A DNA stretch of 27,740 nt, from positions 1 to 27,740 of the forward strand of contig CAZMSV010000002.1 in the NCBI GenBank assembly GCA_964569075.1, in the 5' to 3' direction. The translations under genes and the position numbers were made by a program. This DNA is from an uncultured Candidatus Saccharibacteria bacterium (GTDB lineage Bacteria > Patescibacteriota > Minisyncoccia > Phycocordibacterales > Zambryskibacteraceae). The notes below the pieces were generated by a model. The model was not told the origin of the DNA. It searched no databases and saw nothing but the letters and a program-made list of their open reading frames with translations. Position 1 is the first letter of the stretch. Each line of letters begins with the position of its first letter. Positions 12,298 through 27,028 of the stretch are shown here, one piece after another.

Positions 12298-12858
12298 CTA
12301 CAAACTGAGACCAAACTCCTTCTTTAATTGCTTTTCGTTTTCTATAGAATCAACAATCAAGTACAAGAGATTTTTCCCAAGTTTCATTTCTGCCTTAAGA
12401 AGAGAGACGAAATCCTCACAGTTATAAGGATATACCCAGACGCTATCTTGAAGCCTAATGAAGCCGACCGCCATTAGCTTGTTTCGTGTTTGGTCTCTGG
12501 TTTTTCTTCTTTTTTCTGATATATCAAATATTAAGACTCTCCACTTTTTATCCCATTTTTTCTTTTTCAAAGATACCGCGCCGTATACAGCCAATTGAAT
12601 CTGACCTTTATTGGTAATGCAAAGAAAGCCACGTTTGTCTGTGGCCAAAAGCCCTTTTTCAAGCAATCTTTTTCTGGCTCGATAAATACGCTCTGACTTT
12701 CTGTTACCCACAATTCCTAAGTTAGCAAAAACTTTCAAAGCATTGGGGGACAGGACAGCAACACCTAAGAGGGCGCCGGTATAAATGGCAGAGAGTATCG
12801 CATATTGCACTTTGCCCTTTTTAATTCGCTTACTTACATTTTTCTCCATTTCTCCCAT
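12298..12858 (-). CDS. PaaX-like regulator: hydrophobic helix, winged HTH and a Cas2-like C-terminal domain
   Basis: WDKKWRVLIFDISEKRRKTRDQTRNKL...GFIRLQDSVWVYPY resembles the PaaX/Cas2 fold; no cas1 or array nearby; start placed at MGEMEK. Confidence 0.85.
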   Translation of the reverse strand: MGEMEKNVSKRIKKGKVQYAILSAIYTGALLGVAVLSPNALKVFANLGIVGNRKSERIYRARKRLLEKGLLATDKRGFLCITNKGQIQLAVYGAVSLKKKKWDKKWRVLIFDISEKRRKTRDQTRNKLMAVGFIRLQDSVWVYPYNCEDFVSLLKAEMKLGKNLLYLIVDSIENEKQLKKEFGLSL

Positions 12859-12900
12859 ACACACATTATATACGACCGTGAGAAATGTGTGTATGGGAGA
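12851..12900 (-). promoter_or_regulatory. Palindrome (ACG-AC-CGT core) containing the -10 box and start codon of the PaaX-like gene
   Basis: Minus strand cggtcgtaTATAATgtgtgtATG; arms homologous to 278-325 and 1414-1459. Confidence 0.75.
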
Positions 12901-12904
12901 ACAC

Positions 12905-13057
12905 AAAGATAAGGATGAGAAAAAGGGATATGAAGATAGAAGTGAGAAAAAGGGGTGAGGAAAAAGGTTGGGGTTGGAAGAGGGGGAAAGATGGAAAAAG
13001 ATAAGGAGTTAGGAAAAGAAGTAGGAAAAGAAGAGGGATTGGGAAGGATGTTAGAGA
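12905..13057 (+). other. 153-nt cytosine-free, purine-rich tract
   Basis: No C on the plus strand between 12904 and 13058; degenerate gagaaaaagg / aggaaaagaag units. Confidence 0.9.
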
Positions 13058-13156: not shown

Positions 13157-16069
13157 CTAGAACTCCTCAAAGATCGGATTGAGAGCAATAACAATTGTAC
13201 CTTGGGCAGACACCACTCCTTCGTTACATGTGACTGTTAGATTAGTAGTCTTTACACCAGTAGTTTGATAACTAATAGAAAACGTGCTTCCGGTTGGAGC
13301 CGGGATAGATGGAATCTCTGTTCCTGACCAAGAGTAGGAACATCCTGTTCCACCACTTAAGACCGGTGTCCAAGTAACCTGCTGGCCTACACCTGCCTTT
13401 GATGGACTAACGGTAAGACTTACGGTCGGAAAAACTGGATCAGAGATAATCAAGTTAAAGTTTGTTGTTTTGTCTACTAATCCAGCAGAGGTACCTGTAA
13501 CTGTAATCGGATATGTCCCCGCCACTGCTGTTGGCTGAACCGTAAAGGTTAGAGTTGTATTGCATGTTGGAGAGCATGTTTTATTGGCATAAACCACTGA
13601 AACATTTGCTGGCATACCCGTAGCCGTAACATCTACTGACTGAGTCGTACCTTGAGTAAGAGTCTTAGTAATTGTGTTTATTAGATTTACAGGAGATGCG
13701 CTTTTTGTAACTGAAGAATTGCCTGAATTAGACAAATTATAGTTGAATGACAATCCTGTCATAGTCACCGTAGCACTAGCAGGGGTCGTACCTCCAAGAC
13801 CCGTACAAGTAAGTGTGAATTGAGTGGTTGCAGTTATGTTTGTAATAGTTTGATTAGCTGAGGTCGGATTACCAACTGACTTGGCTCCCACCCATTGACC
13901 ATTTGCTGGACTAGCTGATGCAGTACAGCCTGTAGCGTTTGTTGATGACCAAGTGAGAGTAGATGAACCGCCACTAGCAACTGATGTTGGACTGGCTGAA
14001 ATATTAACTATTGGAGCAGAAATTGCTGTGTATGTAAGAGTGAAGCTTGCCGTATCACCTGGAACCAAGGTCATACTAGAGCCCGAACCAGTTTTACTGT
14101 TAGTAACAGAAGTAAGGGTATAGCCTCCAGGGGTTGCTGGAGTAATGGTATAAGGCGACCCGCCAGAAGCAGGACTTACACTATGACTTCCCGAAGTCCC
14201 AGAGCCATTTATACCTCCAGTTATAGTCCAGGTGGTAGAAACATTAGAGCTTACATTTATTGTTGCACCAGATGTAACATTGAAAGTAACATTATCAGTC
14301 CCCGCAGTAGTGCTTGGGCCGGTATCACAACTTATACCAAAATTTCTGGTACCAGCCGAACCATACGGACCAAATCCTGATATTGAACCTGAGGAACCAT
14401 AAGTGCCTGTCCACTCTCCGCCCGTAGCAAGACAGCGGGTAGCATTAGTACTTGTCCAAGAAATGTCTGCCGAACTTCCAATGGGCATACTTACCGGACC
14501 ATTAGAATATGAAACGGTACCAGATTGACGACCTTGTATATCTGCAGTTGGAGATGGCGCTGTAACATTCACCACGAAGCTATCAACGGCAGGTCCACCC
14601 GTTCCAGCACAGGAGATTGTGAAGGTGGTATTTGAAGATATTGGACCTAGTGAAAGTTGATTGTATGTTCCATTGCTGAAGGTTTTGGCACCACTCCAGC
14701 CATTTGAAGCTGTACAAGATGTTGCATTTGCTGGAGTCCACTGTAGATCAATGTTACTTCCAGAAGCCACAGATAGTGGGCCGTCACCGTATGAACCAGT
14801 GCTAGCCTGTCTACCCTTGAGGTCGACGGTTACTGGGGGCGCTGTAACATTCACCACGAAGCTATCAACGGCAGGTCCACCCGTTCCAGCACAGGAGATT
14901 GTGAAGGTGGTATTTGAAGATATTGGACCTAGTGAAAGTTGATTGTATGTTCCATTGCTGAAGGTTTTGGCACCACTCCAGCCATTTGAAGCTGTACAAG
15001 ATGTTGCATTTGCTGGAGTCCACTGTAGATCAATGTTACTTCCAGAAGCCACAGATAGTGGGCCGTCACCGTATGAACCAGTGCTAGCCTGTCTACCCTT
15101 GAGGTCGACGGTTACTGAGGGACATACATTAGGTGCCGTTCCGGGGTAAGATACAGACAAAGCTGATGTGCCATCAGAATTTGTGGCTGTGCCGGTATAG
15201 TTGTATGTCTGATTAGCAGTTAATCCTGTGTCTGAATAGGAAGTGCCGGAACCACTGTATATTGGTGAACCGTTTCTAAAAATCTGATAGGAAGTTGCCG
15301 TAGATGAGGACCAAGTGAGATTTATAGTTCCAGTACCACAAGCACCTGGAGTGGTGGTAATTACTGGAGGATTCGGTTGGGCTAGGGGTGGAGGTGGGGG
15401 TGGGGGATTAGCTTGATAATTAATTGTAAAAGAATAGCTTGTTGTATCATATTGAGTAGTGAAGCAGGAACTATTCTGACCAGTGACTGAATTATCTATC
15501 CTTAATAGGGTGTAACTATTCGGAACACTTGTTGATGTCAGGCAATACTGTACCCCAGAAGAAGTGGGGATTTGATTTGAATTTGCGGTAAGCCCACCTG
15601 TTATAGACCAAGTACCACCTGTTACAGGAGTTTCATTCACAGTAATGGTGGAACAAGTATAGATATCGGGTGATGATTGATTAAAAAAAATAAATTCGGT
15701 AGCCAACGGCGCTGGGCCGTTACCATTATAATCAATTCTATAAGTATAATTACCACTAAATAACTTCGAATCTGTAAAAATAGTATCTTTACCCTGATAA
15801 GTTCCTAAAGATACCCTTGGTCCTAAGTCATGAGATCGCCAAACTTCAAACCAAGCATTGCTACCATCTGCATTTATTGGGTGGGATACAGGAAAAATAA
15901 CTTTGATATTCGCATCATTCAAAAATAAGTTCCAACTATTACAGTTAATTCGGCCAAATAAGATCTCACCGTTTGGATTACCCTCTTGACCTTGGACAAA
16001 GTTTGGCAATACAAACATCACAAACAATAGGAGACTCGTTATTAATCCGGATTTGGTTTTATTTTTCAT
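13157..16069 (-). CDS. Large secreted Ser/Thr/Gly-rich surface protein with FN3/Ig/PKD-like repeats
   Basis: Signal peptide, poly-Pro linker, FN3-like INLTWSSS..SYQIFRNG..YSDTGL, repeated LxWtstnatsCtAsxxW modules. Confidence 0.85.
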   Translation of the reverse strand: MKNKTKSGLITSLLLFVMFVLPNFVQGQEGNPNGEILFGRINCNSWNLFLNDANIKVIFPVSHPINADGSNAWFEVWRSHDLGPRVSLGTYQGKDTIFTDSKLFSGNYTYRIDYNGNGPAPLATEFIFFNQSSPDIYTCSTITVNETPVTGGTWSITGGLTANSNQIPTSSGVQYCLTSTSVPNSYTLLRIDNSVTGQNSSCFTTQYDTTSYSFTINYQANPPPPPPPLAQPNPPVITTTPGACGTGTINLTWSSSTATSYQIFRNGSPIYSGSGTSYSDTGLTANQTYNYTGTATNSDGTSALSVSYPGTAPNVCPSVTVDLKGRQASTGSYGDGPLSVASGSNIDLQWTPANATSCTASNGWSGAKTFSNGTYNQLSLGPISSNTTFTISCAGTGGPAVDSFVVNVTAPPVTVDLKGRQASTGSYGDGPLSVASGSNIDLQWTPANATSCTASNGWSGAKTFSNGTYNQLSLGPISSNTTFTISCAGTGGPAVDSFVVNVTAPSPTADIQGRQSGTVSYSNGPVSMPIGSSADISWTSTNATRCLATGGEWTGTYGSSGSISGFGPYGSAGTRNFGISCDTGPSTTAGTDNVTFNVTSGATINVSSNVSTTWTITGGINGSGTSGSHSVSPASGGSPYTITPATPGGYTLTSVTNSKTGSGSSMTLVPGDTASFTLTYTAISAPIVNISASPTSVASGGSSTLTWSSTNATGCTASASPANGQWVGAKSVGNPTSANQTITNITATTQFTLTCTGLGGTTPASATVTMTGLSFNYNLSNSGNSSVTKSASPVNLINTITKTLTQGTTQSVDVTATGMPANVSVVYANKTCSPTCNTTLTFTVQPTAVAGTYPITVTGTSAGLVDKTTNFNLIISDPVFPTVSLTVSPSKAGVGQQVTWTPVLSGGTGCSYSWSGTEIPSIPAPTGSTFSISYQTTGVKTTNLTVTCNEGVVSAQGTIVIALNPIFEEF
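14556..15117. repeat. Exact tandem duplication, period 282 bp (94 aa)
   Basis: 14556-14835 is identical to 14838-15117 by direct comparison. Confidence 0.95.
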
Positions 16070-16957: not shown

Positions 16958-18508
16958 ATGTCCACTCGCTACCTTTGGGCATGGACTCTTGTCCTCGCCC
17001 TTTTCGGCTGTGGGGGCAAAACCCCCACTGAGTTTCCGGACCCAAAACCCGAAGCCAAGATTGATGCCAATCCCAAACTGGCCATTGTTGGCCAACCCAT
17101 GACAATCTCTTGGATAATCAAGAATGCCACCTGCATCCCATCGTGGAGAGATGGAACAATCCCCGCAGGAAGTGGTAGTGAGAGCTACACTCCCCAAGCG
17201 GTTGGTGACTTTGAACTCTCAATCACCTGCTCTGGTGCTGGGGGTACGGTCTCGGACAAAGTATCAATACGGGCGGTAAACAAAACGATAGCAATCCTCA
17301 GTCCACAGAGTGCATCAATCGCAATTGGTAAAAGCGTTGCTTTTACCTGGGAGTGCCAAAACGGCACACCACTCTCTCAATCATGGTCTTCCCCACCACA
17401 GGGTACTTCTAGTGGAACATTCTCCTTTATCGGAACAAGTGTCGGCAGTTATGTCGTAACGCTTGCCTGCTCTGGAGAAGGTGGCACAGCTACTGTCCAA
17501 GCCACGGTAACGGTCTACCAACCGCCAACTATTTCTGGAAATGTCTACGGACTTCAGAGTGGACTGGTAGGATTTGGCGATTGGCGAATCTTCGTCACCT
17601 ACAGCGGAGTGCGAGATTCCGTAGATGTCTCCCCTGATGGGAGCTTTTCCATCGTAGCTGATGCGGATAGCGTTGACCTCATCATTGACGACAAAGACAC
17701 GGCAAATCGGCGTTTTTTCCCTACCCTCATCGCTCTGAAAAAAGTCAACTTTGGGAATGTCAATGTCCTAAGAATACCGAGAGAAGGAACTATATCTTTC
17801 GGGATATATTCTGGGCAAAAGATAGCCCAGAGTTTGGAACTGGCCTACACCCCAATACCGAACAACCTCGCTTTCTACTTTAGGGACAATGTTATTGGGG
17901 GATGGATATACCATGTAAATTATCTTTCCAAAGTAGACTCTCCCCTGATGACGGCCTTTGACCGCAATGCTTCTACTGATCCAATCTCTCCAACAGATTC
18001 AATTGGATTCTGGTCAGTAATTGACTCTGTAGAAAGTATATACGGTCAAGATCTGTTCAAACCAGCCAATATCTCTGAACTGCCCGCAGGAAAGGGTTTG
18101 CGCGTTTGGGTAAACAGAACCATGCTGAGTACCGGAAGGGCCGGACCAAGTAATTGGATTGTCACGAACGGAATACGCGAGACCGTCGGGGCCACTTTCG
18201 AAGTTTTTGAGCCAAGTCTACTCCCCGGCTTCTACATCGGGTACCACGAACTAACGCACGTCTTGGGCTTTGGGCACACATGTGTTTGGCCTACGGTAAT
18301 GTTCTCTGGCTTCCTCAATGAATGTGGTCAGGAATGGAAAAGCCTTACTCTAACGGCCTACGATGTTGCCTACAAGGAACTAATGTATGCCGTTGCGGAG
18401 AGGATGCTCGAGACCGGTGCCAAGTACGGACTCGCTGAAGCTCACCAAGGAGAACGGGTGCTGATGCTTGGTCTTCCACGACAAGTGATCTGGTATCCAA
18501 ACCAATAA
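16958..18508 (+). CDS. Lipoprotein with Ig/PKD-like domains and a C-terminal metzincin-type zinc metalloprotease motif
   Basis: Lipobox LALFG|C; HELTHVLGFGH fits HExxHxxGxxH, followed by a Met-turn-like VM; AAGGAGG SD. Confidence 0.85.
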   Translation: MSTRYLWAWTLVLALFGCGGKTPTEFPDPKPEAKIDANPKLAIVGQPMTISWIIKNATCIPSWRDGTIPAGSGSESYTPQAVGDFELSITCSGAGGTVSDKVSIRAVNKTIAILSPQSASIAIGKSVAFTWECQNGTPLSQSWSSPPQGTSSGTFSFIGTSVGSYVVTLACSGEGGTATVQATVTVYQPPTISGNVYGLQSGLVGFGDWRIFVTYSGVRDSVDVSPDGSFSIVADADSVDLIIDDKDTANRRFFPTLIALKKVNFGNVNVLRIPREGTISFGIYSGQKIAQSLELAYTPIPNNLAFYFRDNVIGGWIYHVNYLSKVDSPLMTAFDRNASTDPISPTDSIGFWSVIDSVESIYGQDLFKPANISELPAGKGLRVWVNRTMLSTGRAGPSNWIVTNGIRETVGATFEVFEPSLLPGFYIGYHELTHVLGFGHTCVWPTVMFSGFLNECGQEWKSLTLTAYDVAYKELMYAVAERMLETGAKYGLAEAHQGERVLMLGLPRQVIWYPNQ

Positions 18509-23769: not shown

Positions 23770-24828
23770 ATGAAAAAACATTTCACTCTTTCAAAAACTG
23801 AAAAACTCCCAGACTCCCGAATACTCATTGAGGGCGAGATTGATGTTGAACTACTGAATAAACACAGGGAAAAGGCCCTTAAGGAGATCGGCAAGAATGC
23901 CGAACTTCCTGGATTTAGAAGGGGCCACGTACCAGAAAATATGCTAGTGGAACGCTTGGGAGAAATGCACATTTTGGGCGAAGCGAGTGAGGGCGCTTTG
24001 AATGAAGTTTATCCGCAGATTATTGAAAGTGAAAAAGTTTTTGTTATTGGAGAACCAGAAGTCAAAATTACCAAACTGGCCCCCCAAACTCCCGTTGGTT
24101 TTTCTATAACAATATCTGTACTCCCAGAATTTAAACTTCCCCCCTACAAAAAGATTGCCGGTGAGGTTGTGTCAGAAGAGATATTTCTTGTATCAGAAAA
24201 AGAAGTGGATGATGTAATAAATGAAATTCGTAAAAACTTCGCCCATATGGAAATGCACAAAAACAAAAATTCTGATGACCACAAGCACGGGGAAATAAAA
24301 GACGAAGATCTCCCAGAGGTAAATGACGAATTTGTAAAAAAGATTGGACAGTTTAAGGACGTCTCCGACTTCAGGGAAAAGGCCAAAGAAAACCTGACTA
24401 AAGAAAAAAGTATTCGCGCAAAAGAAAAAAGGCGGACAGAGATACTGGAAAATATCCTCAAGGGAACTGAAATATCTGTTCCTCAGATCCTGATTGAAAA
24501 TGAACTCAAGAAAATGCTCGCACAATTTCAAGACGATGTGGCTCGTGCTGGTGTAAATTTTGAAGAATATTTAAAACAAGTTAATAAAACAGAAGAGGGT
24601 ATAAAAAAAGATTGGACAGAAACAGCAATTAAGAAGGCAAAGATACAACTCATACTAAATAAAATATCGGAAGAAGAAAAAATATCTCCAGACGGAGACA
24701 AAGTGCGAACAGAAACTGAAAAAATACTTATCGCTCATCCGAGTGCTGACCCAATCCGCGCCAGACTCTATGTTGGCCAAATGTTTCTAAACGAAAAGGT
24801 AATAGAGTTTCTAGAAAGCCAAGAATAA
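23770..24828 (+). CDS. tig: Trigger factor, short form (FKBP domain apparently missing)
   Basis: Ribosome-binding signature LPGFRRGHVP; C-domain LPEVNDEFVK...VPQILIENE. Confidence 0.93.
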   Translation: MKKHFTLSKTEKLPDSRILIEGEIDVELLNKHREKALKEIGKNAELPGFRRGHVPENMLVERLGEMHILGEASEGALNEVYPQIIESEKVFVIGEPEVKITKLAPQTPVGFSITISVLPEFKLPPYKKIAGEVVSEEIFLVSEKEVDDVINEIRKNFAHMEMHKNKNSDDHKHGEIKDEDLPEVNDEFVKKIGQFKDVSDFREKAKENLTKEKSIRAKEKRRTEILENILKGTEISVPQILIENELKKMLAQFQDDVARAGVNFEEYLKQVNKTEEGIKKDWTETAIKKAKIQLILNKISEEEKISPDGDKVRTETEKILIAHPSADPIRARLYVGQMFLNEKVIEFLESQE

Positions 24829-25524
24829 CTATTGCAAAAGTATAAGACTTGAAATAGCGACCGCCGCTGTTTCTGCTCGTAGAGTTTGATGACCCAAAGA
24901 ATACACCCGCATATTATTTTTCTTAAAAAGAAAAATTTCTCTATCTGTCCATCCACCCTCTGGTCCAACAAATATTCCTAAAGGAGAATAATTTTGTGCG
25001 TGCTCTATAGTGAAAGTATCTCCCTTTGGGTCAAAAGCAAAGCAAGGAAACTCTGCATTTATGGCATCTTCAAGGTTCATAATTTGAGAGAGCACCGGCA
25101 GTGTTGCTCTGCCTGATTGTTCTGATGCTTCTATTAAAATCTTTTCTGCTCTTTCAATATTTATATTTTTCTTTTCGCTTCTATCAGAGAGTATCGGTAT
25201 AAAGCGAGTCACACCAAGCTCTGTCCCCTTCTCAAGTACCCATTCAAATGTGTCTTTTTTGGTGATTGAATAAAAAAGATGAAGCTCTCGAGCTGGGGTA
25301 TTTTTGCTTTCCTTTTTTGAAATGACCGAACCCATAATCTCTCCATTCTCAAGAGATGAAATCAAAATATAATATTCAAAACCAGTATTATCAAAAAGAA
25401 TAATCTGTCCACCTACTGTGAAACGAAAGACTGAAAGGAGCTGGTGAATAAGCGCCGAATCGCGAATAACGACACTATCTTTGTCGCCGATTTCTTCTGG
25501 GGTGTAAAATCTGTGAAGACGCAT
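24829..25524 (-). CDS. rsmE: 16S rRNA m3U1498 methyltransferase
   Basis: EKGTELGV, EASEQSGR, IFVGPEGGW, LGHQTLRAETAA. Confidence 0.97.
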   Translation of the reverse strand: MRLHRFYTPEEIGDKDSVVIRDSALIHQLLSVFRFTVGGQIILFDNTGFEYYILISSLENGEIMGSVISKKESKNTPARELHLFYSITKKDTFEWVLEKGTELGVTRFIPILSDRSEKKNINIERAEKILIEASEQSGRATLPVLSQIMNLEDAINAEFPCFAFDPKGDTFTIEHAQNYSPLGIFVGPEGGWTDREIFLFKKNNMRVYSLGHQTLRAETAAVAISSLILLQ

Positions 25525-25530
25525 GGGGGG

Positions 25531-26703
25531 TTACAGTTTTGAGTTGTTAGTTTTAAGTAAATACAGTAAATACTCTGCCAAACAAACGAAACTGTCGTTA
25601 GCCCAGACGCTTTGGTCGGGACTTGCAGCTTTTAGCTTTGGCTCTAGCTTAATACCTTGTGAAACTCTTTGCAATTTTATTCGAAGTTTATAACTGTTCC
25701 CATGAGAGAGTAACCCTAGATAAGAGGCTGTGCTTTCTGGTGTGTAATGCTTTCTAACATTTCGGAACATCCTTCTTTTTGTCGCAGTACGCAAAATCCT
25801 GTGCTTAGGAAAATGTACCCAACCTAGAAAATCAATTCCAGACGAAAATGTTTTTATAAAAACCTTGTCTGGATGCAAAGCCAGTTTAAGATTTTGTACA
25901 AGAAAGTCTGATACTTGCGAAAGAAGCGCCTCTAAATCCTTTTTATTGTGCGAAAGAAAAACAAAGTCGTCAGCGTAGCGAATATAGTATTTAACCTTAA
26001 GCTCATGTTTCACATATCGATCAAACTCATTCATATAAATATTAACCAGAAGTTGTGAAGTAGGGTTGCCTAATGGTAAGCCCTCAGAACATTCCAATAT
26101 TCTTGAGAATGTTGGAATGTTTGATGATGATTTAAAACTATCTATTACTTGTTCCAGAAGCCACAGATTCTGCTTATCCTTGTCGACGCTCCACACGCGG
26201 TTGTCAGCGCTCCAGTACACAAAGACGACACATGAGCTGGTGTAGAACAGGTTGGCATGGCCGTTATTCAACAGCGTGCCCTCCTTTCCACCCTCCTGCT
26301 TTGAGATGAGATCTGCGATGATGGCACAGAGCACGCCTTCATCAAAGAGATGCCCATCTGGCAGGGAGCTTTCGATCCCGACGTCGCTCATATCCCTCTT
26401 GAGCTCGAAGCTCCGGGCGCTGAACTCGGCACCAGCCGGAGTTGGCTTCGCCTTCGCGACCACCTGACTGCGGTAGCCACCCCAAACCCAGAGACCTTCC
26501 CGGTTCTCGTAGAACGAGTCGGGGTTGTGGGGCTCGGCGAGCTTCACATACACGAGACCGCGCGGTGCGAGGAGCATCTCCGCCTCCACATACTTGCGCA
26601 CGACCTCAACCAACTCGTCACCGCGCGGTGCGAGGAGCATCCCCGCCTCCACATACTTGCGCACGACCTCAACCAACTCGTCTGGCGTCATGGTGTTGGC
26701 CAT
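25531..26703 (-). CDS. Chimeric ORF: DGR target (variable) protein N-part fused in frame to the C-terminal half of a DGR reverse transcriptase
   Basis: aa ~174 onward: GLPLGNPTSQ, YIRYADDF, LHPDK, GIDFLGW; aa 1-173: GTLLNNGHANLFY..CVVFVYWSADNRVWSVD, resembling CPR DGR targets. Confidence 0.85.
   Translation of the reverse strand: MANTMTPDELVEVVRKYVEAGMLLAPRGDELVEVVRKYVEAEMLLAPRGLVYVKLAEPHNPDSFYENREGLWVWGGYRSQVVAKAKPTPAGAEFSARSFELKRDMSDVGIESSLPDGHLFDEGVLCAIIADLISKQEGGKEGTLLNNGHANLFYTSSCVVFVYWSADNRVWSVDKDKQNLWLLEQVIDSFKSSSNIPTFSRILECSEGLPLGNPTSQLLVNIYMNEFDRYVKHELKVKYYIRYADDFVFLSHNKKDLEALLSQVSDFLVQNLKLALHPDKVFIKTFSSGIDFLGWVHFPKHRILRTATKRRMFRNVRKHYTPESTASYLGLLSHGNSYKLRIKLQRVSQGIKLEPKLKAASPDQSVWANDSFVCLAEYLLYLLKTNNSKL
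26182..26226 (-). repeat. Truncated DGR variable repeat (VR)-like segment
   Basis: GTC TTT GTG TAC TGG AGC GCT GAC AAC CGC GTG TGG AGC GTC GAC; alternating NNY codons derivable from AAY by changes at adenines only. Confidence 0.65.
26557..26682. repeat. 63-bp tandem duplication (21 aa)
   Basis: 26557-26619 vs 26620-26682, one mismatch (26579 T / 26642 C). Confidence 0.95.
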
Positions 26704-26711
26704 GGGGTCAT

Positions 26712-26811
26712 CTCCTTATTTTTGAAACGAACATTCCCAGAACGCTGGGTCGTCGGTAGGAAATCCACCACTTCTACCCTTAATTATACCATACTTGATT
26801 TAAAAATGCAA
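26712..26811 (-). promoter_or_regulatory. Promoter and SD of the target::RT ORF
   Basis: TTGCAT (26811-26806), 17 nt, TATAAT (26788-26783) preceded by TGg; AAGGAG 8 nt before the ATG. Confidence 0.8.
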
Positions 26812-26872
26812 GGATTTGACCCCAAAATCTATATTTTTAGGGTTTTTAGCACTAGCACATATTAACTCTACC

Positions 26873-26916
26873 CACCCTCCAACTTCTCGACCTATAGGTC
26901 GAGAAGTTGGATGGTG
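26873..26916. repeat. Palindrome with CCTATAGG core upstream of the DGR remnant
   Basis: Perfect 34 bp tccaacttctcga-cctatagg-tcgagaagttgga; left flank catattaactctacccaccctccaac matches 186-211. Confidence 0.93.
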
Positions 26917-27028
26917 TATATTGTCCTTTATTCATCATTCCTTCTTCGTTATTCCTTCTGCATCCCCTAACTTGAAAAGTGGGGTGAATCATGTAATATT
27001 GCACTACTTAAAACTAACAATTACCTAT

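Follow-up and report, generated by a model that had tools for sequence, protein, structure and literature searches.

What is a 390-codon open reading frame (ORF) that reads like the target gene of a diversity-generating retroelement (DGR) over its first half and like a reverse transcriptase (RT) over its second? The ORF lies on the minus strand at positions 25531-26703 of a 27,740-nucleotide (nt) stretch of contig CAZMSV010000002.1 from an uncultured Candidatus Saccharibacteria bacterium, and this whole stretch is called the window below. An earlier note on the same DNA had taken the ORF for a DGR that collapsed by one deletion, leaving either a switched-off retroelement or a new fusion protein. 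Here we report that the ORF is a three-part chimera with at least three rearrangements behind it, and we put at roughly three in four the probability that it is a young, non-functional remnant of a Patescibacteria-type DGR. Its unusual feature is the in-frame union of the two genes with the target broken inside its variable region (VR); otherwise it is a broken member of a DGR type already known in candidate phyla radiation (CPR) bacteria.

The ORF ends with a TAA stop (25531-25533) 6 nt before the start codon of rsmE, which is read in the same direction. Taken per 120-nt segment, its GC content is 0.50-0.64 at 26140-26740 and 0.33-0.41 at 25540-26140, with a genome mean of 0.40; averaged by part, it is about 0.60 (26182-26703) against about 0.37 (25681-26181), with the step at 26182/26181. 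This confirmed the 390-residue ORF, its motifs LGNPTSQ, YADD, LHPDK and IDFLGW and the GC switch at ~26181 that the earlier note had picked out. Homology breaks at the same place, since matches to the target family stop at residues 173-175 and RT matches start at residues 174-176, with no remainder. The codons at the junction read TGG AGC GTC GAC / AAG GAT AAG CAG (W171 S172 V173 D174 / K175), within the spanning sequence ..NRVWSVDKDKQNLWLLEQ.. Because D174 is ambiguous in parentage (target 'WxVx' or RT 'DKD') and the window RT has 2 residues more than its relatives between DKD and LWLL, the exact breakpoint is not fixable without the ancestor. The junction itself is present in DNA assembled more than once: the stretch occurs in many microbial-mat runs, and Logan contigs from 3 runs read through 26182/26181 without a single difference (X1, 6072 nt, spanning 24800-26609; X6, 474 nt, spanning 25932-26405; X8, 502 nt, spanning 25714-26215). 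Neither an alternative joint at 26182/26181 nor variant letters over the remaining half of the VR were seen in the Logan contigs. In addition, an identical protein is called on 5 contigs, and two of these (104 kb and 3.6 kb) come from separate JGI metagenome assemblies, span the junction as well and have the same neighbours, clpP, rsmE and trigger factor. The parts of the locus, with the basis of each in brackets, are these.

25531-26703, minus strand: chimeric ORF of 390 codons (ORF call, stop TAA)
26182-26703, minus strand: target-derived part, residues 1-174, about 60% GC, without the family's last 20-22 residues (homology to residues ~50-196 of ~218-residue DGR targets)
26182-26244, minus strand: left-over 5' half of the VR, YTSSCVVFVYWSADNRVWSVD (alignment with intact loci)
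26557-26682, minus strand: 63-nt tandem duplication, 62/63 identical (repeat search)
26181-26182, minus strand: putative deletion junction GAC/AAG (ends of homology)
25681-26181, minus strand: RT-derived part, residues 175-341, ending GNSYKLR (RT alignment)
25534-25680, minus strand: 49-codon C-terminal tail from the former rsmE-clpP spacer (match to the spacer of genome G004)
26712-26717, minus strand: AAGGAG ribosome-binding site, 8 nt before the ATG (sequence)
26783-26811, minus strand: promoter-like site, TTGCAT-17 nt-TATAAT with a TG extension (consensus match only)
26873-26916, unstranded: 44-nt palindrome 5' of the ORF (88% copy at C1:5149-5193 of the same genome)
25680-26964, unstranded: DNA extra to four same-genus genomes, about 1.29 kb (spacer comparison with G004)

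Of the two halves, which the earlier note had suggested searching separately, profile searches identified only one: the RT half matched RVT_1, and the N-terminal part had no Pfam or NCBIfam family match. The N-terminal part nevertheless has 54 homologues (E 9e-49 to 2e-22, 41-60% identity), which are mostly hypothetical proteins of 200-221 residues and, among the few named ones, belong to Parcubacteria-type bacteria. Members of this family stand directly upstream of TR-(bAvd)-RT, where TR is the template repeat, in intact DGR loci. Locus L005 has the target (372-1028) first, then bAvd, which is on the opposite strand (1484-1801), and last the RT (1857-2873); L003 and L004 show the target followed by bAvd, and in L006-L008 and L009 the target is followed by a gap of ~700-900 nt and the RT. 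Each intact locus contains a direct repeat pair, one copy of which forms the last 113-123 nt of the target, while the other lies 429-449 nt downstream. In three intact loci the VR and TR copies differ at 16, 16 and 17 positions, and 16 of these in each locus fall on adenines of the TR (48/49 in total). Since nearly all the mismatches fall on template adenines, the ~218-residue family is a genuine family of DGR targets, and by homology the N-terminal part of the chimera is the front of such a gene, in agreement with the earlier note.

Compared with its relatives, the target part of the chimera is incomplete at both ends. Its homology to the family, at 45-60% identity within the first ~196 of ~218 residues, stops at ..VWSV(D), and the relatives run ~22 residues further, through a C-terminus (pattern xTWxRGDxGWxAGxxVFSPA) that alternates between conserved and hypervariable columns. 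At the N-terminus about 35 alignment columns of a helical module are absent, and the 63-nt tandem duplication doubles the helix DELVEVVRKYVEA(G/E)MLLAPRG. None of the 32 conserved target columns is altered. The VR is cut after 57-63 nt of its 113-123 nt, and at the positions where the family's template has AAC the surviving half carries the codons TTT, TAC, AGC, AGC and GAC. Set against the TR of L005, which comes from another organism, the half-VR differs at 7/16 A positions and at 6/42 other positions, and this mismatch pattern would fit past diversification, although it is suggestive only.

The target and RT genes of the intact loci L005, L007 and L009 have GC contents of 0.54/0.37, 0.62/0.48 and 0.56/0.33, respectively, and the target is richer in GC than avd too. 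This contrast between target and RT characterises the DGR family. Foreign GC-rich DNA and contamination were rejected as sources of the GC step in the chimera, because the intact relatives display it too. One cause of the GC-richness of the targets may be selection against stray adenines in and around the VR and TR.

Three further observations concern the targets of related loci. In the DGR whose RT is closest, the target (L024:133-726, compared with P0002, P0009 and P0011) has a different C-terminal variable domain and shares with the studied family the N-terminal helical module MTPS..ITAGQIGK.Q.LL...LRKS...VAAVRRRVEA, which suggests that variable domains may be exchanged modularly on a common N-terminal module. 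In a genome of the same family (G008) a target-like match at C2:80505-80954, minus strand, lies 5' of a DGR RT at 78751-79257 and contains 3 in-frame stops (2 TGA, 1 TAG); either a further decayed target or an alignment that overruns the gene end could explain it. A 218-residue gene upstream in L001, considered as a candidate paralogous target, was unrelated.

Turning to the C-terminal part, Pfam RVT_1 matches residues 201-295 only, which correspond to profile positions 111-203 of 205. The downstream motifs are all in place, namely motif 4 LGNPTSQ (residues 211-217, 26053-26073), motif 5 YADD (residues 243-246, 25966-25977), motif 6 LHPDK (residues 276-280, 25864-25878) and motif 7 IDFLGW (residues 290-295, 25819-25836), and the thumb is present as well. 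Residues ~175-347 have matches in more than 7500 proteins, with 60-69% identity for the best; they are mostly metagenome RTs of 300-380 residues, and the few named ones are again Parcubacteria-type. The RT half is 52-57% identical to the RTs of L005, L006 and L009, and 65% identical to the closest cassette RT, P0056, which adjoins bAvd and a TR/VR pair with 21/22 mismatches at TR adenines. Its scores fall far short of the cut-offs set for the group II intron model TIGR04416 (67.6 bits against 300) and the retron St85 model (49 bits against 235), although a half protein scores low anyway, and the Drt models matched the RT half only weakly. Judged from these alignments, the RT half is of the DGR type, as the earlier note had held from the motif 4 sequence.

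What is lost from the RT lies at both of its ends. The window RT begins with DKD..LWLL, directly behind motif 3/A (LKCDIRKFFASxD), so that motif 3/A and motifs 1, 2 and 2a are gone. At the other end the RT-derived sequence stops at GNSYKLR (R341), where the relatives continue for 7-16 residues to a stop codon, and its own stop is absent. Among 62 conserved columns of the kept half a single one is altered, L214P in LGNLTSQ (motif 4). Without the fingers, motifs 1-3 and the motif-A aspartate, the RT half is predicted to be no polymerase, which bears out the view of a probably polymerase-dead chimera put forward in the earlier note.

To size the loss, we transferred the breakpoints to the intact loci L005, L007 and L009, which gave 1407, 1429 and 1387 nt. 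The missing DNA there comprises 20-22 target codons, the VR 3' end, the TR, avd where present and 170-206 RT codons including motif A. The VR 3' end that is absent from the chimera carries the homing signal (initiation of mutagenic homing, IMH), and the mapping on three intact loci thus upholds the earlier list of lost parts: VR 3' end, IMH, avd/TR and the RT N-half with its motif-A aspartate. Target and RT stand on the same strand in the intact loci, and a single internal deletion would therefore yield the observed order. Starting from the layout target/VR - TR - (avd) - RT, a loss of about 1.4 kb would have joined target codon 174 in frame to the RT just behind motif A, with the target broken in the middle of the VR, and would have taken with it the VR 3' half and the homing signals, the TR, avd, and the RT fingers with motifs 1-3. 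From there the frame reads on beyond the point where the RT would have had its stop, crosses 49 codons of former spacer and ends 6 nt before rsmE.

The lost parts were not found elsewhere in the genome assembly, which has 626 kb in 60 contigs and is 93% complete. Its single RT match is the chimeric ORF. The bAvd proteins of L005 and L024 had no tblastn match in the 626-kb genome, and neither an RT N-half nor a second target was found there by tblastn and blastn. No copy of the VR remnant was found in the window or in the 626-kb genome, and heterologous TRs were also without a match. A second DGR acting in trans was considered and none was found in the genome. Some DGRs do without avd, and its absence alone does not exclude membership of the class. 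The chimera fails as a functional DGR, since the TR, a complete RT, the IMH and avd are all missing. Because the VR 3' half, the TR, avd and the front of the RT are lost and no other RT, avd or TR was found in the genome, mutagenic retrohoming is impossible, and what survives of the VR stays fixed as it was last diversified.

The earlier note had described the product as a frozen ligand-binding domain. The half-VR is indeed frozen; a C-type-lectin fold for the target is weakly supported. An AlphaFold2 model of a full-length relative, P0003 (mean predicted local distance difference test, pLDDT, 91), shows three N-terminal helices and then, at residues 68-218, an alpha/beta domain with the VR on its last strands. 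With this model Foldseek returned nothing from the PDB at E<0.9, and an exhaustive VIA-align search gave weak scores (best Z 5.0). For residues ~68-218 the VIA-align list consists mostly of C-type lectin-like domains and formylglycine-generating-enzyme-type (FGE-type) proteins, and two variable proteins of DGRs also appear in it, TvpA (2y3c, Z 4.1) and Mtd (1yu0, Z 3.8). A minimal lectin-like fold is likely but unproven for the target. According to the P0003 model and the alignment, the truncation removes half of the strand 192-199, the strand 210-214 and the conserved W..G..VFSP, and the target domain of the chimera would be structurally incomplete. The model of the fusion itself is poor and only suggestive (pLDDT 67, falling below 50 at residues 141-158 and 178-225). 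Any protein made from the ORF would be neither a polymerase nor a correctly folded target.

How does the chimera compare with known DGRs? It shares most with the CPR DGRs of architecture B3, TR-(avd)-RT, to which Wu et al. 2018 (PMC5758913) assign 90% of their CPR set. In such loci (L005, L006-L008, L009 and L024) the RT belongs to the same family as that of the chimera, with 52-65% identity over the kept half and a DGR-type motif 4; the target, too, is of the same family and bears its VR at the C-terminus; GC content is higher in the target than in the RT; and gene order and strand agree. Unlike these loci, the chimera has no TR, avd, VR 3' half or RT motifs 1-3, its genes form one frame, and its RT has no stop of its own. 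The founding system is the Bordetella phage BPP-1 DGR (mtd-VR / avd / TR / brt). That system and the intact relatives described here have in common an adenine-specific transfer from TR to VR at a small binding protein's C-terminal tip, with Avd as a helper. In contrast to BPP-1, the cassette order is different, there is no phage context and no detectable similarity of target sequence, and the element here cannot work; the structural match of Mtd and TvpA to the target model is weak, at Z 3.8-4.1.

The history of the site was read from related genomes. An intact counterpart in sister genomes, to which the earlier note had looked for the deletion ends, was not there: in all four same-genus genomes rsmE and clpP are divergent neighbours ~150-185 nt apart without an insert, and this RT is absent from all four. 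In the closest genome, G004 (RsmE 80% and ClpP 91% identical), the spacer has a 21-nt exact match to 25645-25665 of the window, more similarity from 25525 on, and a match to 26968-26980. Between these flanks lie 18 nt in G004 and 1302 nt in the window. Because the flanks of G004 match on both sides and the four sister sites are empty, this lineage carries an insertion of about 1.29 kb (25680-26964), which takes in ~260 nt 5' of the ORF; the ORF's final 49 codons derive from old intergenic spacer. We infer that the deletion took place in a once-complete cassette at this site, instead of a broken piece having arrived here, and the event would be recent. The single deletion of the earlier note holds as the core event, but it is not provable, and more than a deletion has happened here: the RT 3' end and stop are missing, the N-terminus is short, a 63-nt duplication is present and the locus is itself an insertion.

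Two other routes to the chimera were considered. Homologous recombination between VR and TR was ruled out as the cause, since on the RT side the break is inside the RT gene instead of a TR. Retro-insertion of a template-switched cDNA is unlikely, because the ~260 nt upstream with their promoter-like site should be missing from an mRNA copy, and it is further disfavoured by an RT-side breakpoint without TR homology. As to the upstream elements themselves, 30 nt of the promoter-like site have a 97% identical counterpart on contig C20 of this genome, and the element with its downstream leader, TATAATTAAGG(G)TAGAAGTGGTGGA, occurs at at least 3 places in the genome (window 26783-26830, minus strand; C20:806-834; C10:18935-18963). 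The 44-nt near-perfect palindrome, CACCCTCCAACTTCTCGACCTATAGGTCGAGAAGTTGGA.., may be a small dispersed hairpin repeat.

Several observations weigh against the reading of the chimera as a young relic. The frame is open across three joints, which one would not expect of junk: the internal junction is in frame (chance 1/3), and the 49 spacer codons are free of stops, as in only 2.6% of composition-matched shuffles; read by eye, the equivalent frame of the G004 spacer meets a stop after 14 codons. The ORF has a good ribosome-binding site and a promoter-like site that resembles another one in the genome. Almost all conserved residues are intact, which fits purifying selection as well as youth. Support for the junction comes from assembler contigs and not from raw reads, so that rare intact alleles could escape, and ~7% of the genome is unassembled. 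As to history, an intact ancestor was not found at the rsmE-clpP site and deletion in situ is not shown; moreover, the truncated RT end abuts a nearly complete old spacer, and the piece could have arrived already truncated.

The best-surviving alternative accepts the same origin but holds that the fusion was kept by selection, either as an expressed protein with a frozen ligand-binding head and a nucleic-acid-binding RT palm/thumb, or as a frame kept open to help the expression of rsmE. In its favour, beyond the open frame, the in-frame junction and the expression signals just named, the ORF is co-directional with rsmE and only 6 nt upstream of it, and its sequence is identical in several mat samples. 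Only 1/94 conserved columns is changed (0/32 in the target and 1/62 in the RT), which is equally expected of a recent event and cannot separate youth from selection; the two copies of the duplication, identical at 62/63 positions, are consistent with youth. Against it, the open-frame argument is post hoc, and the sole changed conserved residue falls in motif 4. The target has lost its last 20-22 residues with W..G..VFSP and the last strand of the model, the RT its fingers and motif-A Asp, and the fusion model is of low confidence around the junction. Downstream of the insert there remains a piece of old spacer in which rsmE's own promoter may lie. The fusion is a singleton: no protein matching both halves was found among 1.84 billion cluster representatives, where the best match (218 bits) covers one half, none of the 8000 scored candidates was an independent fusion, and none of 40 related genomes contains one. 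The earlier note's idea of looking for independent target::RT fusions thus drew a blank. Term searches of the DGR surveys PMC5758913 and PMC8144416 met no description of a target::RT fusion, which does not prove that none is published. Taking both sides together, we regard retention of the fusion by selection as unlikely, and we are slightly more doubtful still of its stronger form, in which the chimera is a selected product of DGR collapse that locks one VR variant into a two-module protein or keeps a frame open to drive rsmE.

A second alternative concerns the history of the locus. According to it there was never a working DGR here, and an already rearranged foreign fragment of 1.29 kb was inserted into the rsmE-clpP spacer by illegitimate recombination. 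The empty site in four same-genus genomes that also lack this RT, the truncation of the RT end next to a nearly complete ancestral spacer and the lack of any further DGR part in the genome speak for it. Nothing, however, separates it from a course in which a whole cassette was inserted first and then suffered the deletion, and the near copies of the promoter-like site and the palindrome in the same genome point to local DNA or to long residence. We consider arrival as a fragment improbable, and since it concerns history only, the object is a collapsed DGR either way.

Lastly, an assembly chimera, in which a GC-rich piece of another organism was misjoined to an AT-rich RT fragment, might be invoked for the sharp GC step at the junction and for a conserved RT motif region that draws reads from many organisms (depth spike at 26061-26157), but it is scarcely credible, since contigs of 3 runs from a different assembler cross the junction by 34-430 nt without a difference, two JGI assemblies hold the identical ORF, on a 104-kb contig with the same neighbours in one case, and three intact DGR loci show the same GC step between target and RT.

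Further features were noticed elsewhere in the window. A self-complementary repeat of 44-47 nt, CCCATACAC.CATT...CGTGAGAAATG.GTGTATGGG, is present in three copies (83-91%) at 277-323, 1412-1458 and 12851-12897; two of the copies flank a sigma-70-like gene at 395-1228, and these copies make up a second family of hairpin repeats beside the 44-nt palindrome. A 970-residue ORF (13157-16069, minus strand) has weak Filamin/DUF6301 matches only, contains a 282-nt tandem duplication (14474-15037, 87% identical) and is probably a repeat-domain surface protein. At 12298-12906 (minus strand) a 202-residue ORF carries a PaaX central Cas2-like domain (E 8e-20), and no CRISPR array was noticed in the window. 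A 516-residue ORF with a PKD domain (16958-18508, plus strand) lies in a stretch with a GC content of 0.47-0.51, above the genome mean of 0.40; an Rfam scan of the whole window gave no match, and 16958-18508 is therefore not an rRNA gene.

What does the locus mean for this family of retroelements? If the fusion were expressed and selected after all, for which the evidence is thin, it would be a rare case in which the wreck of a retroelement has been turned into a new protein. Annotators should neither name ORFs of this kind reverse transcriptases nor count them as DGRs. The locus also documents an uncharacterised family of ~218-residue targets with an N-terminal helical module and possibly a lectin-like domain. 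As a relic, finally, it offers a clear example of the death of a DGR, in which an internal loss from mid-VR to mid-RT would strip away all the parts needed for retrohoming at one stroke.

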